From Candidatus Heimdallarchaeota archaeon (GTDB lineage: Archaea > Asgardarchaeota > Heimdallarchaeia > Heimdallarchaeales > Heimdallarchaeaceae), in the NCBI GenBank assembly GCA_019057815.1, contig JAHLWR010000001.1, forward strand, positions 224,001 to 288,000: a stretch of 64,000 bases of DNA, in the 5' to 3' direction. Positions 8,434 through 40,016 of the stretch are shown here, in pieces. The translations under genes were made by a program, and so were the position numbers. The notes beneath the pieces are model-generated. The model saw nothing but the letters and a program-made list of their open reading frames with translations, did no database searches and was not told the DNA's origin. Position 1 is the first letter of the stretch; each line of letters opens with the position of its first letter.

Positions 8434-8445
8434 TTTATATGCTTT
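8434..8445 (+). promoter_or_regulatory. TATA box of the proS leader transcript (TTTATATGCTTT)
   Basis: The identical 12-mer occurs upstream of thrS (33751-33762) at nearly the same distance from the shared GAGGACAATGAA motif. Confidence 0.65.
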
Positions 8446-8467
8446 CTAGGATGAAGATTTGAGGACA

Positions 8468-8506
8468 ATGAAAGGTGACTATGTTCCGACAAATACTTGT
8501 AAGTAA
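8468..8506 (+). promoter_or_regulatory. Putative proS leader uORF MKGDYVPTNTCK (Pro codon CCG at 8486-8488)
   Basis: ATG AAA GGT GAC TAT GTT CCG ACA AAT ACT TGT AAG TAA; the motif is shared with the thrS and leuS leaders. Confidence 0.6.
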
Positions 8507-8589
8507 CTGTTCTTCACGTGAGAGAAGGAATATCTGCACCAGAAACTCAACACTTTTGATTAATATAATACAAAGAAAGGTGAAATTAG

Positions 8590-10026
8590 ATGTCAGTATT
8601 TTCTAAAAACAAAGAAGAGAATTTTATGGCTTGGTATCTAGATATTGTTCGTCGCGCACAAATCGTTGACACAAGAACAGAAGTTAAAGGTGCGAATGTT
8701 CTTATGGCGAATGGTTATGAGATATGGGATAGGATGAAAAACATCCTTGATGGGAAATTCCGCAAAACAGGACACAAAAACATGTACTTTCCTCTATTAA
8801 TTCCTGAAAAATTCTTAACACTTGAAAGTACGCACTTTGAGGGATTTGTTCCCGAAGTTGGTTGGGTAACAAAAGTTGGCGAAAGAGATTTAGAGGAAAT
8901 CTATGCTTTACGACCAACATCAGAAACAATCATGTATCATATGTACGCCCAATGGATTAGGGCATATACTGATATGCCTCTGAAAGTAAACCAATGGTGT
9001 AATATCATACGCATAGATACAAAAGATACTAAACCTTTACTCCGAGATAGAGAATTTCAATGGACAGAGGCGCATACATGTCATTCATCTGCAGAAGAAG
9101 CAGAAGAGCAAGTTAAGCAATCAATGTGGATATATGGTTCATTCTTCGATGAGTGTTGCTTGCCTTATATAATTGTCAAACGTCCTAAACATGACACTTT
9201 TCCTGGTGCTCTATATAGTGTTGCATATGATTGTCCTCTCCCAGATGGCAAAAGTTTGCAAATTGGTACTACTCACAATCTTGATCAAGGATTTAGTAAA
9301 ATCTTTGAAATTCGTTTCCAAAAAGCTGATGGTAGTCATGATTACGCATATCAAACCTGTTATGGTTTATCTACTAGAGTTATTGCAGCTGTAATAGGTG
9401 TACATGGTGATAGTAGAGGATTGATTATCCCTCCTTTTCTCGCACCAATACAAGTTGTAATTGTTCCTATTTTGTTCAAAGGAAAGGAAGAAAAAGTTGT
9501 AAACGAATGTAAAGAAGTTTTAGGAACTGTAGAAAAAGCAGGATATAGAGTTCTATACGATGATAAAGATAAAACCAGCGGTTGGAAATTCAACGAATAT
9601 GAGCTACTGGGTGTTCCCCTTCGCATTGAAATAGGTCCTAAAGATGTAGAAAAAGAATCAGTGGTCGTCGTTCGCAGAGATACAAAAGAGAAAATATCCG
9701 TAAAAAAAGACAACATAGTAAGAACAATTAATGAATTACTAGAAAAAATAACTGATGAACTAAAGACTAGAGCTAAGAAATTTTTGGAAAGTTCGATTAC
9801 AGATGTATTAACATATGAAGAACTTGAAGCGCAATTAACTCTAGATAAAGCAGGTTATATTCGAACTAACTGGTGTACAGATGTTTCTTGTTCTGACCAT
9901 ATAAAGGAAAAATTCAAGGCAAATATTCTAGGAACAAAATATGGTGAAGAGGAAAAGAGCTTTGGTAATTGTGCTATATGTGGAAATGAAGCTAAAGAAG
10001 TTGTATATATTTCTAAAACCTATTAA
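8590..10026 (+). CDS. proS: Proline--tRNA ligase, archaeal/eukaryotic type
   Basis: LRPTSET, NQWCNIIR, LLRDREFQW, QIGTTHNL motifs, anticodon domain and C-terminal Zn site ending in KTY. Confidence 0.97.
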   Translation: MSVFSKNKEENFMAWYLDIVRRAQIVDTRTEVKGANVLMANGYEIWDRMKNILDGKFRKTGHKNMYFPLLIPEKFLTLESTHFEGFVPEVGWVTKVGERDLEEIYALRPTSETIMYHMYAQWIRAYTDMPLKVNQWCNIIRIDTKDTKPLLRDREFQWTEAHTCHSSAEEAEEQVKQSMWIYGSFFDECCLPYIIVKRPKHDTFPGALYSVAYDCPLPDGKSLQIGTTHNLDQGFSKIFEIRFQKADGSHDYAYQTCYGLSTRVIAAVIGVHGDSRGLIIPPFLAPIQVVIVPILFKGKEEKVVNECKEVLGTVEKAGYRVLYDDKDKTSGWKFNEYELLGVPLRIEIGPKDVEKESVVVVRRDTKEKISVKKDNIVRTINELLEKITDELKTRAKKFLESSITDVLTYEELEAQLTLDKAGYIRTNWCTDVSCSDHIKEKFKANILGTKYGEEEKSFGNCAICGNEAKEVVYISKTY

Positions 10027-33750: not shown

Positions 33751-33762
33751 TTTATATGCTTT
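33751..33762 (+). promoter_or_regulatory. TATA box of the thrS leader transcript (TTTATATGCTTT)
   Basis: Same 12-mer as upstream of proS. Confidence 0.65.
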
Positions 33763-33785: not shown

Positions 33786-33818
33786 ATGAATAAAGGTGAA
33801 TGCGAAACAAACAGATAA
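33786..33818 (+). promoter_or_regulatory. Putative thrS leader uORF MNKGECETNR (Thr codon ACA at 33807-33809)
   Basis: ATG AAT AAA GGT GAA TGC GAA ACA AAC AGA TAA; shares TTTGAGGACAATGAA..AAGGTGA with the proS leader. Confidence 0.6.
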
Positions 33819-33889
33819 AGATTTTATTGTGCCTTTATTTAGTAATTATGTACTCTTTGATCCTAATAGTAAAGTTTTGAGGTGTTTAC

Positions 33890-35815
33890 ATGTCAATGGT
33901 AGAAGTTACTTTGCCTGATGGTAGTAAAATAGAGATAAAAAAAGGTAAAACGGTCTTAGATGTAGCTGAAAACATAGGACCAGGTTTAGCAAAAGCTGCT
34001 ATTGCTGGTAGGTTGAATGATGACTTTGTAGATTTAACTTGTAAAATCGTAGATAATTGTAATCTTGAGATTATTACACTAAAATCTGATGATGCTTTTC
34101 ATATCCTCAATCATAGCGCAGCTCATATCATGGCAAGTGCGGTTGTAAAAATATTCCCAAATGCCCGTCCAACCATCGGACCTGCAGTTGATGAGGGATT
34201 TTACTATGATTTTGCAATTGACGAACCCTTTTCTCAGGAGGATTTAGAGAATATCGAATCTCAGATGAAGGAATTCATAGAAGCTGATACACCCTTTGTA
34301 AGGGAGGATATCTCCATTAAAGAAGCGATAGAATACTATAAATTAACTGAAGATAACAAATTCAAGGTAGAAATACTTGAAGAAATTGATGATAGTAACT
34401 CAATATCATTTTATAGTCATAATAATGGGGATTTCAAAGATTTATGCCGAGGACCGCACGTTCCCTCCACAAAGAGAGTGACAACTGTTAAACTACTTAG
34501 TGTTTCCTCAGCTTTCTGGAGAGGTGATGCTAAACGTGAGTCACTTCAACGAATTTATGGGATAGCTTTTCCAACAGAAAAGGATCTTAAGAAGCATCTT
34601 AGGATGCTTGAAGAAGCTAAAAAACGCGACCATAGAATTCTTGGCCCACAACTTGATCTTTTCGACACTGCAGACGAATGGGGGCCTGGAATGCCTTTAA
34701 TCTTTCCCAAAGGTCGAGTTATTCTAGAAACTATGAGAAACTTTTGGGAAAAAGAACACAAGAAAGCTGGATATGAGATAGTACAAACACCTCACATATT
34801 CAAAGAAATAGTATGGCAAACAAGCGGTCATACTGAATATTTCATCGAAAATATGTTTCCTGTAGATTTACGAGGAGAACTTTGGTATGTAAAACCAATG
34901 AACTGTCCAGGACACATGATGATCTACAACAGACGTGCTTATTCATACAAAGAATTACCTGTACGTATTGGAGAAATGGGAACTGTTTATCGATATGAAT
35001 TATCTGGAGTTTTGCATGGTCTATTTAGAATACGTAGTTTTACTCAAGATGATGCACATATATTCATGCTACCTTCCCAACTAGAAGATGAAATTGTCAA
35101 TGTAATAAACATGGTTAATCATTTCTACAAGACTTTTGGGTTTAAGGAATGGGAATATTTCATAAGTACTAAACCTGCAAAAGCTATTGGAACAGAAGAA
35201 GGTTGGGAACATGCAACTAATGCACTGATAAATGCCATGAAACGTGTTGATATACCTTTTAAAATTAAGAAGGGTGATGGAGCTTTTTATGGTCCTAAAA
35301 TTGATGTTGATGTCAAAGATGCAATAGGGCGAAAATGGCAACTATCAACCATTCAAGTTGATTTCAACTTACCTGAAAGATTTGACATTAATTATTTAGG
35401 AGAAGACAGTCAAAAGCATAGACCGTATGTTATTCATAGAGTAATATATGGTGCAACGGAGAGGTTCTTAGCAATACTAGTCGAACACTATGAAGGTAAA
35501 ATGCCTGTTTGGTTGAGTCCTATACAAGTTGTAGTTATTCCAATTACTGACAATCATGTAAATTATGCTAAAAAAGTAGTTGAAGAATTCAGTAAAGCAG
35601 AAATTCGCGCAGAAGCAGATACGAGCGGTGAAAGAATGGAATATAAAATCCGTCAAGCTACTTTAAACAAAATCCCATATATACTAAATGTTGGTGATAA
35701 AGAACTTGAATCTAAGACAATAGCAGTGAGATCCAGGGGAAATAAAGTAGAATTTGGGGTAAACATTCCAGACTTTATCAATAAAATACTAAAGGAAATT
35801 GAAAATTATCAATAA
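33890..35815 (+). CDS. thrS: Threonine--tRNA ligase (bacterial/eukaryotic architecture: TGS + editing domain)
   Basis: VTLPDGS (TGS), HSAAHIMA, DLCRGPH, RDHR, KPMNCPGH, FTQDDAH, GAFYGPKID motifs. Confidence 0.97.
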   Translation: MSMVEVTLPDGSKIEIKKGKTVLDVAENIGPGLAKAAIAGRLNDDFVDLTCKIVDNCNLEIITLKSDDAFHILNHSAAHIMASAVVKIFPNARPTIGPAVDEGFYYDFAIDEPFSQEDLENIESQMKEFIEADTPFVREDISIKEAIEYYKLTEDNKFKVEILEEIDDSNSISFYSHNNGDFKDLCRGPHVPSTKRVTTVKLLSVSSAFWRGDAKRESLQRIYGIAFPTEKDLKKHLRMLEEAKKRDHRILGPQLDLFDTADEWGPGMPLIFPKGRVILETMRNFWEKEHKKAGYEIVQTPHIFKEIVWQTSGHTEYFIENMFPVDLRGELWYVKPMNCPGHMMIYNRRAYSYKELPVRIGEMGTVYRYELSGVLHGLFRIRSFTQDDAHIFMLPSQLEDEIVNVINMVNHFYKTFGFKEWEYFISTKPAKAIGTEEGWEHATNALINAMKRVDIPFKIKKGDGAFYGPKIDVDVKDAIGRKWQLSTIQVDFNLPERFDINYLGEDSQKHRPYVIHRVIYGATERFLAILVEHYEGKMPVWLSPIQVVVIPITDNHVNYAKKVVEEFSKAEIRAEADTSGERMEYKIRQATLNKIPYILNVGDKELESKTIAVRSRGNKVEFGVNIPDFINKILKEIENYQ

Positions 35816-36826: not shown

Positions 36827-39760
36827 CTATTCTAGAAGTAATGCAGGTTTCATTGGTCTGGCTTTTTGGGCTTTCTTTTGTGGATCATAAATCTCTTTTT
36901 CGTCAGCCATATGAATTAGGATTTTAGCTTTGTTGTATTTATCACTTATGAATTCTGTATATCCTTCTATTGCATTTTTTTGGTTTTTGGTAGATAGTAT
37001 TTTGATCCGAAAAATTGTTGGATCTTTCAGCATTAATTTTGCTTCATTTGCAATTTCCTTCATGTATTTACTTAGTTCATTATTATCTTTAGATGCTGAC
37101 ATTACTTTTCCTATTTGTACTGCTTCTTCCTCAAATATTTTTTTTGCTAATTCATATAATACATTCTTCCATTCTGCGTTGATGTAAATATGAATCTTCT
37201 TTGGCTTAGTTTTAACCAATTTAACTATCTGTTCAATATCTTCCATTAAATCAGTCATATATTTAGATTGCAGAGCATATAGTAAATCTTCATTAGTAAT
37301 AACAATATCTGGAATTAGTTTCAACGAAACATAGTCTGTATACCCCATTCTCTCATTCAACTCTTCACAGATATGAGGAATTGCTGGTGCCATAATAATG
37401 ACTATCTTCTCAATAATGTCTCTTAAAACAGCTTTTTTCTCGGTTTTTGGTAGATGTTCCGCTATTTTATAATATTCATCAATCGCTCTTATATTTGCAT
37501 AGAATCCATCTAAAATATAGTCTCTTGCATTGAACTTCTCAATTGCTTCTAGTGCACTTTTTAGGTTGGTTTTTACAGAAGAATGCAATATTTTTGATGG
37601 GAATGAGTAGGCAATGTTTTTCTTTCCAGTGGTATCTGTTACACTTAAAGCATATTCCCAGAATTTCCTCAACCTTTGTTTAGCATAATTCACTTCTGTA
37701 TCTTTCCATTCTAACACAGTCTCTGGTGTTGCAACAGATGCTAGATGTAATCTTGTTAGGTCAACACTGTATTTCTCCGGAACAAGGGCTATTGGAATAA
37801 CATTTCCTTTACTCTTACTCATCGCTTCTCCGAAACGACTTACCATATCGTTTAATGAGAAAGCAGGTAACCAGTATTTTTCAGGGAATATCGCTACATG
37901 GTGAAAGATTGCGAATGATAAATGATTAGAGATATGATGAATAGCTGTATGTCTAAGATCATTAGGATACCAATACTCAAATTCTTCTTTCATTTGTTTT
38001 ATAATATGTTCTGATAATTCTGTTTTCTTACTTACTTCCTTAATGTCACCTTCATCTAGAAGGATATAATCAAACAGCATAGGTTTCAGTTGATTAGCTT
38101 TTATATTGTTCTTTTTTATGTGTTTAACAATTGTGTAATATGCCATATAAATCACTGAATCACTCAGTGACTCAATTATCCATCCTTCTCCTTTTGTTAA
38201 TGGAAATTCTGTTCCTAGTCCTCTTCTTCTCACACAAGGTCTTTTATCTAACCAATTGAAAGTATTTTCAAAACTTTGTCTATATTTTTCTGGAATGATT
38301 GTCATTTTATTTAATGCTTCGAATGCTTTTTTATTCCATTCAGCATCTCCATAATTTAGGAAATATTGGTTCTGAATAATTGCTACAATAATTTGACCAC
38401 CACATCTACAAGAAGCTTTAGCAGATGTCTCATAAATAGGTGCTGCTAAATTAATATCAAATAGAACATCTGCGATTCTATCTTTTGCCTCTTCAATTTT
38501 TAATCCTTCGAAGTCTCCTGTATTATCCTTCATAATCCCAGAGTAATATTCATCCTTGTAAATCGTTTGAGTAGCCTTTTCTAATTTTCCAGTATCTTCT
38601 TGCGATTTAACACCCAATTTCTGACATAACTCTACTGCTGGAAAATCACCATAGTCTTTTACTTTAATCATGGATATAGGATTTATTTGTTTCAGCTTTT
38701 CAGAATTTAAAGCATATTTTTCAATTGTTTTTTCATCTTTCTGCAAATCAACTAAAGCAGTATAATCATAAGGAGCATGCCCAGGAACACTATAAACGAT
38801 ACCAGTAGCATGATCAGTATCAATAAAATTAGCTGGGTAAACAGGAATTTTACTTTTTGTTATTGGAACTTCAACAATCTTGTCTAAGATTTCTTCACCC
38901 TTCAGCTCTCTAATTATGGTGATTTTATGATCTTGTTCCATTAGCTTCATAGTTGCTTCTTTAGAAATTATCCATGTTTCATCATCGATGGAGATTTCAT
39001 TATAGAAACCATCAGGATGTATCCAAACATTGGTTGCTCCGAATATTGTTTCGGGTCGAAGTGTAGCTGCAACTAAAAAGGAGTTATTTTCAAGAATGAA
39101 TTTAATACCAACAAACTCAGTAACTTCTACTTTAATCTCATCTCCTGCTTGAATGTCATCTTCACCAACAGCGTTTTTATCGTTTATGCACCATAAAATA
39201 GGGTGATTTCCTTTAGTAATAAGGTTTTTATTGTTTAGCTTGATGTATTGCCATTCAATGAATTTGTTGTATTCTGAATCTCCTGTAGTGAATTGTCTAG
39301 TAGTATCAAGTGAATATCCCATTTTTAGAAAATCTTGAATTATTTTCTTTGCAAAATAACTAGCAACATTTTCTGGTTTTGTAAAAGAAGAGATTACTTC
39401 CTCAATTCTTTTTGTATCCTTTTCATATATTGAAATGTATTCACGATATTTTTTCCATTCATCTTCATCGTTATTCCGAATTTTCCAGGATACAGCGAGA
39501 ACTGGAGTACCAGTTATATGAAAACCCATTGGCCACAAAACATTGTATCCTTGTTGTCTTTTGTATCTGGCAAATATATCACCTAAACCATAAGTTCTAC
39601 TATGACCTATGTGAAGAGGAGCAGTAGCATAAGGATAAGACACTGTTAGAAACCATTTTGGTTTGCTCTTATCAATAACACCTACGAAAACATTATCTTC
39701 TTGCCATTTCTTTTGCCATTTCTTTTCGATCTCACGTATTACTTCGAGAAAATTCGTCAT
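36827..39760 (-). CDS. leuS: Leucine--tRNA ligase, archaeal/eukaryotic type
   Basis: YPY...LHIGH, GFHITGTP, ATLRPET, SVPGHAPYD, IESLSDS, AMSKSKGN, KARPMKPAL; ATG at 39760 (GTG at 39769 is an alternative). Confidence 0.97.
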   Translation of the reverse strand: MTNFLEVIREIEKKWQKKWQEDNVFVGVIDKSKPKWFLTVSYPYATAPLHIGHSRTYGLGDIFARYKRQQGYNVLWPMGFHITGTPVLAVSWKIRNNDEDEWKKYREYISIYEKDTKRIEEVISSFTKPENVASYFAKKIIQDFLKMGYSLDTTRQFTTGDSEYNKFIEWQYIKLNNKNLITKGNHPILWCINDKNAVGEDDIQAGDEIKVEVTEFVGIKFILENNSFLVAATLRPETIFGATNVWIHPDGFYNEISIDDETWIISKEATMKLMEQDHKITIIRELKGEEILDKIVEVPITKSKIPVYPANFIDTDHATGIVYSVPGHAPYDYTALVDLQKDEKTIEKYALNSEKLKQINPISMIKVKDYGDFPAVELCQKLGVKSQEDTGKLEKATQTIYKDEYYSGIMKDNTGDFEGLKIEEAKDRIADVLFDINLAAPIYETSAKASCRCGGQIIVAIIQNQYFLNYGDAEWNKKAFEALNKMTIIPEKYRQSFENTFNWLDKRPCVRRRGLGTEFPLTKGEGWIIESLSDSVIYMAYYTIVKHIKKNNIKANQLKPMLFDYILLDEGDIKEVSKKTELSEHIIKQMKEEFEYWYPNDLRHTAIHHISNHLSFAIFHHVAIFPEKYWLPAFSLNDMVSRFGEAMSKSKGNVIPIALVPEKYSVDLTRLHLASVATPETVLEWKDTEVNYAKQRLRKFWEYALSVTDTTGKKNIAYSFPSKILHSSVKTNLKSALEAIEKFNARDYILDGFYANIRAIDEYYKIAEHLPKTEKKAVLRDIIEKIVIIMAPAIPHICEELNERMGYTDYVSLKLIPDIVITNEDLLYALQSKYMTDLMEDIEQIVKLVKTKPKKIHIYINAEWKNVLYELAKKIFEEEAVQIGKVMSASKDNNELSKYMKEIANEAKLMLKDPTIFRIKILSTKNQKNAIEGYTEFISDKYNKAKILIHMADEKEIYDPQKKAQKARPMKPALLLE

Positions 39761-39924: not shown

Positions 39925-39954
39925 TCAAATGGGAAGAACACATTCACCAGTCAT
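39925..39954 (-). promoter_or_regulatory. Putative leuS leader uORF MTGECVLPI (Leu codon CTT at 39936-39934)
   Basis: Minus strand GGAGAATAATATA ATG ACT GGT GAA TGT GTT CTT CCC ATT TGA; same G-E-C core as the thrS uORF. Confidence 0.55.
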
Positions 39955-40016
39955 TATATTATTCTCCGTGTAGTTTCCTAAAGAATCAAGAATTCTTTAC
40001 ATTTTTAAATTTTATG

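Follow-up and report, generated by a model that had tools for sequence, protein, structure and literature searches.

Cognate-codon mini-frames upstream of aminoacyl-tRNA synthetase genes in a Heimdallarchaeota lineage: candidate ribosome-read sensors of charged-tRNA supply

How might an archaeon match the level of an aminoacyl-tRNA synthetase to the supply of its amino acid? T-box riboswitches and attenuation by leader peptides are viewed as inventions of bacteria, and we know of essentially no mechanism by which archaea perform this matching. The question is raised by the window analyzed here, that is, the whole stretch of 64,000 nt from a Candidatus Heimdallarchaeota (Asgard) genome, in which proS, thrS, and leuS each follow a very short reading frame containing a codon cognate to the enzyme encoded downstream. 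The initial annotation had proposed these frames as regulatory leaders. Its three mini-frames are correct to the base in position and peptide, each contains the GGTGA described, with the cognate codon 7 nt later, and the genes that follow are identified by NCBIfam profiles as proS, thrS, and leuS. The features of these leaders are collected in Table 1.

Table 1. Coordinates of leader features and associated genes (window positions, except for the ileS paralogs, which are given by contig)
Feature	Position	Strand	Basis or comment
proS leader promoter, TATA-like TTTATATG	8434..8441	+	Sequence reading; transcription start inferred from position
5' element TTGAGGAC	8459..8466	+	SD-like GAGG ahead of mini-frame; 5' strand of predicted outer helix
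proS mini-frame MKGDYVPTNTCK	8468..8506	+	ATG at 8468, TAA ends at 8506
Internal SD-like GGTGA	8474..8478	+	7 nt ahead of Pro codon; complementary to 16S 3' end
Cognate Pro codon CCG	8486..8488	+	Rarest Pro codon in the genome, 4% (codon usage)
Downstream strand GGAATAT-CTG-CACC	8527..8540	+	Predicted to pair with ATGTTCC and GGTG of mini-frame
Closing-helix strand CTCAA, then CAC, then TTTT	8546..8557	+	Predicted hairpin, then U-run
Main SD GGTGA of proS	8579..8583	+	Sequence reading
proS, proline--tRNA ligase	8590..10026	+	TIGR00408, 557.6 bits
thrS leader TATA-like TTTATATG	33751..33758	+	Sequence reading
GAGGAC, 5' strand of outer helix P1	33779..33784	+	RNAalifold
thrS mini-frame MNKGECETNR	33786..33818	+	GGTGA at 33795-33799
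Cognate Thr codon ACA	33807..33809	+	Invariant in 10 distinct thrS leaders
TTTT run, then CCTTTATT	33822..33839	+	Pairs with AATAAAGG at 33789-33796 within mini-frame (minimum-energy folds)
thrS, threonine--tRNA ligase	33890..35815	+	TIGR00418, 673.5 bits
leuS leader TATA-like TTTAAAAA	40002..40009	-	Sequence reading
SD GGAG	39964..39967	-	9 nt ahead of leuS mini-frame
leuS mini-frame MTGECVLPI	39925..39954	-	GGTGA at 39948-39944
Cognate Leu codon CTT	39934..39936	-	Leu invariant; CTT or CTA among orthologs
leuS, leucine--tRNA ligase	36827..39760	-	NF008957, 1057 bits
ileS paralogs	C11:6224-9427; C35:63846-67058		36% identical; each with Ile mini-frame

We located 21 synthetase genes and one AsnA-like paralog in the 3.7-Mb source assembly (G000) by Pfam searches, named them with NCBIfam, and inspected the regions upstream of all located synthetase genes for mini-frames. 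Seven synthetase genes have an upstream mini-frame with a cognate codon, and they represent the Pro, Thr, Leu, Ile (two paralogs), Trp, and Phe classes. The codon matches the enzyme in 6/6 classes, and the claim that it tracks synthetase specificity extends to all seven genes. From base composition, we estimate the probability of six matches by chance at 8e-9 with the position fixed and at ~1e-4 when a frame may match at any of five positions. The frames share a general grammar: a start, one to six codons, usually Glu, Asp, or Val, the cognate codon, one to three further codons, and a stop. Across leaders of 60 to 190 nt, the mini-frames span 4 to 12 codons. Both ileS paralogs carry ATG-G[GA]T-CGT-GAA-ATT (M-[GD]-R-E-I), and the stop comes after one to four more codons; the leader of the C35 copy is ~200 nt long. 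The corresponding frames in the source genome are TTG-GAC-TGG-CGA-TAG for trpS and TTG-GAA-TTT-TAT-TAG for pheS.

The mini-frames are preceded by an SD-like GAGG or GGAG. The 3' end of the 16S rRNA in this genome reads GGAUCACCUCCU; thus, GGUGA and GAGG are both complementary to the anti-SD. The 16S 3' region, present in two copies on the minus strand of contig C23 (~28645 and ~43160 in minus-strand coordinates), also has a ~33-nt insertion between CCUGCGG and UGGAUCACCUCCU, which could reflect an expanded helix 45 or a small intron.

The pattern does not extend to every synthetase gene: such a frame is missing from valS and lysS, and no obvious cognate mini-frame lies upstream of the remaining synthetase genes in the source genome. 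For valS, the absence of a cognate mini-frame extends to the orthologous leaders. A conserved hairpin, UUGGGUG-loop-CACUCAA with UUUUU directly after it, is located ~35 to 45 nt upstream of valS on contig C41, and its stem is GGGUG, GAGUG, or GAGUU against CACUC among genera; this hairpin may represent another type of leader element. A candidate lysS mini-frame, MLMTTTLKLQVKIFC, was rejected since orthologous leaders do not keep it and the sister genome has a Glu codon in place of the Lys codon. Another synthetase-like gene, at C35:44751-47112, encodes a 653-residue protein that scores as a glutamine--tRNA ligase (TIGR00440, 703 bits), an enzyme unusual for an archaeon.

To compare leaders, we fetched up to 40 relatives per enzyme at the orthologous loci. 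The mini-frames are kept in orthologous leaders from up to four families (f1 to f4) of one Heimdallarchaeota order, and the cognate residue is invariant in every class while the neighboring residues vary. Among proS orthologs, the core G-[DE]-[YFC]-[VLF]-P is found in 19 leaders (17 distinct cores) from four families. The GGT of GGTGA is invariant in 17/17 distinct leaders; so is the Pro, encoded by CCG in 10 of them, CCA in 6, and CCT in 1. A second type of ProRS (~490 to 503 amino acids, 38 to 41% identical), the only ProRS match found in relatives G002, G003, G010-G012, and G018, is without a Pro leader, indicating that this leader travels with one gene lineage. For leuS, orthologous mini-frames include MKGDYVLL, MNGECVLL, MGYRVLL, MRNRVLL, and MCSVLL; V-L is kept even where LeuRS identity is 31 to 51%, and 13/16 distinct leuS leaders have two cognate Leu codons. 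The prediction that the sensing codon varies only synonymously among orthologs was borne out (CCG/CCA/CCT for proS, CTT/CTA for leuS). Rare-codon use was rejected as a general rule, given that it fits only CCG; Thr and Ile are encoded most often by ACA and ATT, respectively.

The other classes show comparable patterns at different phylogenetic depths. The thrS core G-[ED]-[YCW]-E-T is present in all five genera of family f1, and a search of ~185,000 species for the thrS leader pattern returned matches in 18 genomes only. All of these are archaeal metagenome-assembled genomes (MAGs), titled Candidatus Heimdallarchaeota (15), Promethearchaeati (1), or archaeon (2). The ileS consensus M-D-[RH]-[EQ]-I occurs in three of the order's four families, with the leader pattern found in 29/30 genomes of f1, 1/1 of f2, and 3/3 of f4; there is one match per genome, except for two in G001 that correspond to its two ileS loci. 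Outside the order, the ileS pattern was found in 3/22 genomes of another order and 1/~330 elsewhere in the phylum, and the reversed pattern, used as a control, gave zero matches in 400 genomes. The trpS consensus, TTG-GA[CA]-TGG-NNN-stop, is shared by families f1 and f3, and that of pheS, TTG-GAA-TTT-NNN-stop, is found in f1.

Several features of these alignments are those of a translated frame. In 105/118 distinct leaders, the cognate frame has a start at most 8 codons ahead of the sensing codon and a stop at most 4 codons past it; each of the other two frames gives 0/118, although the orthologs are related and these counts overstate their independence. All three stop codons occur at the equivalent site among leaders, and the distance from the ATG to the core differs between lineages by 0, 3, or 6 nt, in steps of three. 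The frames, their conservation, the match of codon to enzyme, and this reading-frame signature are direct observations. For pheS and trpS, the assignment is less simple. We first read their leaders in the ATG frame (MGRIVTWNF for pheS, MRVVTWTG for trpS) and then dropped this reading for the -1 frame, TTG-GA[AC]-cognate-NNN-stop, which is preferred for pheS and family-f1 trpS because the conserved stop exists only there. In family f1, the ATG/TTG frame (…V-T-W…) and the -1 frame overlap, both are conserved around ACTTGGA, and both contain the cognate codon. Since TTG is the sole possible start of the conserved-stop frame and an ATG frame overlaps it, which of the two is translated in pheS and trpS is uncertain.

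The GGTGA with the cognate codon at Gly+4, advanced in the initial annotation as the defining rule, describes one subfamily; ileS, leuS of genus g3, and trpS of family f3 do not keep this register. Non-SD-like pentamers, CAUUA and GAUUA, occupy the place of GGTGA in the source-genome pheS and trpS leaders, and an internal SD with 7-nt spacing is a feature of the subfamily and not of the system as a whole. Unrelated upstream regions had been suggested as the background. GGTGA look-alikes occur there too: MQGEFYK, a mini-frame with GGTGA at C24:17411-17434, lies 115 nt ahead of a response-regulator/PAS/GAF gene. As this gene is unrelated and has no amino-acid link, we take the frame as a chance instance that gauges the background. 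The match of codon to enzyme exceeds chance.

Taking these observations together, we favor the reading that each leader is a cis sensor, read by the ribosome, that reports how much of one charged tRNA is available and through which the synthetase gene would be controlled; we assign it a probability of roughly 0.7. That the ribosome stalls, in which direction expression responds, and how the output is achieved are what we infer from the sequences. Transcription would begin shortly before the mini-frame, which is 4 to 12 codons long, and a translating ribosome would meet the single cognate codon after a short conserved context, usually Glu, Asp, or Val, and, in one subfamily, 7 nt after the SD-like GGUGA. 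If the cognate aminoacyl-tRNA were abundant, the ribosome would arrive at the stop one to three codons on and depart, whereas under scarcity it would remain on the mini-frame. Occupied in this way, the mini-frame would be unavailable for base pairing with its complement further along the leader, a pairing that, where present, would form a hairpin ending beside a U-run. The stalled ribosome may also keep a termination factor off the nascent RNA, so that more polymerases would read through into the synthetase gene. Because the stop lies only one to three codons past the sensor codon, stalled and terminating ribosomes would cover nearly equal stretches of RNA; the variable is more likely the residence time of the ribosome than the RNA segment that it covers.

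How well does RNA structure agree with this model? In the minimum-energy fold of the proS leader, the strand at 8527..8540 pairs with the mini-frame (-14.6 kcal/mol as a duplex; z = -2.4). Outside this core pairing, the TTGAGGAC element pairs with CTCAA at 8546-8550 in an outer UUGAG/CUCAA helix with a UUUU run after it, and in most family-f1 proS leaders a U4 to U7 run lies 0 to 3 nt from the closing helix. Pairing between the mini-frame core and a downstream strand is predicted for proS in families f1 and f4 and for ileS, leuS, and trpS of several genera (z from -2 to -4.5). For proS, it is compensatory between families, with UUUGUUCC/GGAACAAA in one and CUGCCUU/AAGGCAG in another. A leader hairpin with compensatory changes and a U-run is seen in proS and in some ileS, leuS, and trpS leaders; none was detectable in thrS, pheS, and several genus-g3 leaders, and duplex scores were not significant for thrS, pheS, and the leuS and ileS of genus g3. 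Among 19 thrS leaders, RNAalifold pairs GAGGAC with GUCCUC (P1), two pairs of which show compensatory changes, and the partner strand in the source genome is degenerate (GUACUC). Helix P1 was all that emerged from RNAalifold; mixed proS, leuS, ileS, trpS, and pheS leaders yielded no consensus. A segment AUAUCAC, considered as an anti-SD switch in thrS, was rejected, not being kept among thrS leaders. The proS, thrS, and leuS leaders of the window fold no more stably than shuffled sequences (z from -0.5 to +0.6).

U-runs are similarly uneven. Many leaders of the Thr, Ile, and Trp classes have a run of at least 5 U soon after the cognate codon; such runs are rare or absent in Pro (3/18), Leu (1/22), and Phe (0/13) leaders, against a background of 22%. 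This enrichment is class specific, and we reject a universal U-tract terminator on that account. As far as these folding models tell, one RNA architecture common to all leader classes is absent.

Premature termination is our tentative choice for the output step, at less than even odds, and an output through mRNA stability or translation, though less likely, is a live rival. Archaeal termination is, to our knowledge, not known to require hairpins. Archaeal terminators are U-tracts acting with aCPSF1/FttA (PMC8716108), and a hypothesis exists that FttA and a coupled ribosome compete or exclude each other sterically (PMC11616081). Against the sensor reading stands the single regulatory codon per leader, or two in many of the leuS leaders; in bacteria, classical attenuators usually carry runs of such codons. 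The context might make one hungry codon sufficient, with the P site holding an acidic residue or Val and, in the subfamily, with GGUGA 7 nt upstream. In its most specific form, the model would describe the first archaeal regulon of ribosome-mediated amino-acid attenuation, in which frames of 4 to 12 codons with one context-enabled sensor codon let the ribosome block an FttA-dependent hairpin/U-tract terminator; we give this form somewhat less than even odds.

Three other explanations deserve consideration. The first keeps the sensor and changes its output: the stalled ribosome would shield the mRNA from 5'-to-3' decay or alter access to the main ribosome-binding site (RBS). Stalled ribosomes stabilize ermC mRNA in Bacillus. 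In favor of this explanation, the mini-frames lie within a few to ~25 nt of the predicted 5' end, and an output of this kind requires no common RNA structure, which fits the structural heterogeneity described above. In proS, CACC (8537-8540) could pair with the internal GGUG or with the main SD, as control of the RBS would have it. Yet this alternative pairing amounts to only 4 bp and has the wrong sign, in that a stall would free the anti-SD strand, and most of the predicted folds leave the main SD unpaired. We consider this explanation unlikely.

The second possibility is that the mini-frames are translated constitutively and sense nothing, serving as upstream frames that fix the level of translation or assist the loading of ribosomes, the cognate codon being a by-product of leader duplication or of an RNA constraint. 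The proS, thrS, and leuS leaders are indeed clearly paralogous. Those of proS and thrS are near-copies, both with TTTTATATGCTTT and then ATTTGAGGACAATGAA 16 to 17 nt further on, and GAGGACAATGA has exactly two copies in the 3.7-Mb genome, one ahead of each of these genes. Conservation of the GGT of GGTGA at the nucleotide level and the look-alike mini-frames ahead of unrelated genes point the same way. However, paralogy predicts an equal residue at the sensing position, and this residue instead differs between paralogs and matches the enzyme in 6/6 classes. The match also extends to the non-homologous leaders with M-D-R-E-I, TTG-GAC-TGG, and V-L-L. We consider non-sensing frames very improbable.

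In the third, the triplet would be the specifier codon of a T-box-like riboswitch, read by the anticodon of an uncharged tRNA without translation. A cognate codon in a structured synthetase leader is the niche of the T-box, the two systems have synthetase genes and a single cognate codon in common, and in proS leaders the triplet lies at a helix edge. In a T-box, though, the tRNA reads the codon and no frame is involved; the strict frame signature found here (starts, stops, and 3-nt indels) would have no role. The base after the codon is variable rather than a conserved purine, and leaders of this size show no common platform or acceptor-binding bulge. Rfam searches returned no match at the gathering threshold in the window and none, T-box models included, even at E ≤ 1 in seven leader loci. 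The likelihood of this explanation is slight at best. A tRNA-mimic operator of the E. coli thrS type, in which the synthetase binds a leader hairpin that displays the cognate anticodon, finds no support in these sequences: what is conserved is a codon (ACA, CCN, CTT) and not the anticodon, and the thrS leader alignment has no conserved anticodon-like loop.

The favored reading, a ribosome-read sensor of charged-tRNA supply, has parallels in several known systems, although we found no archaeal precedent for cognate-codon synthetase leaders in the literature. Bacterial synthetase genes with leader attenuators include pheM-pheST in E. coli and predicted cases at leuS and trpS in Streptomyces (PMC1262725). 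Like these, the leaders described here place a short frame with codons for the amino acid of the synthetase ahead of its gene, and in the proposed logic a hungry ribosome on the leader would likewise raise expression. They differ in being archaeal and in having one sensing codon, with a stop one to three codons later, in place of a codon run; no demonstrable terminator/antiterminator pair was found in them, and archaeal termination relies on U-tracts and FttA rather than on hairpin terminators. As in the pyrBI leader and the Rho-dependent tnaC system, a leader-bound ribosome may block a terminator hairpin or mask factor entry near the stop. Those attenuators sense UTP and free tryptophan, respectively, whereas the leaders described here would respond to how much cognate aminoacyl-tRNA is available, with FttA/aCPSF1 as the factor.

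The erm/cat leaders, the arginine attenuator peptide, and the MAGDIS peptide of AMD1 are also very short and conserved, with a context that sets the position of the stall. They sense drugs or metabolites via the nascent chain; in the present leaders, unlike in erm/cat and the eukaryotic upstream open reading frames (uORFs), the variable codon matched to the enzyme points to decoding as the sensed step. Finally, the autoregulatory site of prfB (RF2) resembles the GGUGA-N4-[GUU or GAA]-[cognate codon] arrangement in placing an internal SD-like motif a few nucleotides upstream of a slow A-site codon. At prfB, the ribosome shifts into the +1 frame at a stop codon, and we see no sign of frameshifting here beyond the overlapping pheS and trpS frames.

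The organisms that carry these leaders are uncultured and represented by MAGs. Conserved mini-frames matched to the enzyme ahead of seven synthetase genes constitute a concrete, directly testable candidate mechanism, and the codon-swap prediction of the sensor reading is simple to test. If the reading is correct, transcription-translation coupling would be used for regulation in archaea, and the leaders would offer a natural substrate for studying the interaction between the ribosome and FttA. It would also place uORF-based sensing in the Asgard lineage, the archaeal relatives closest to eukaryotes.
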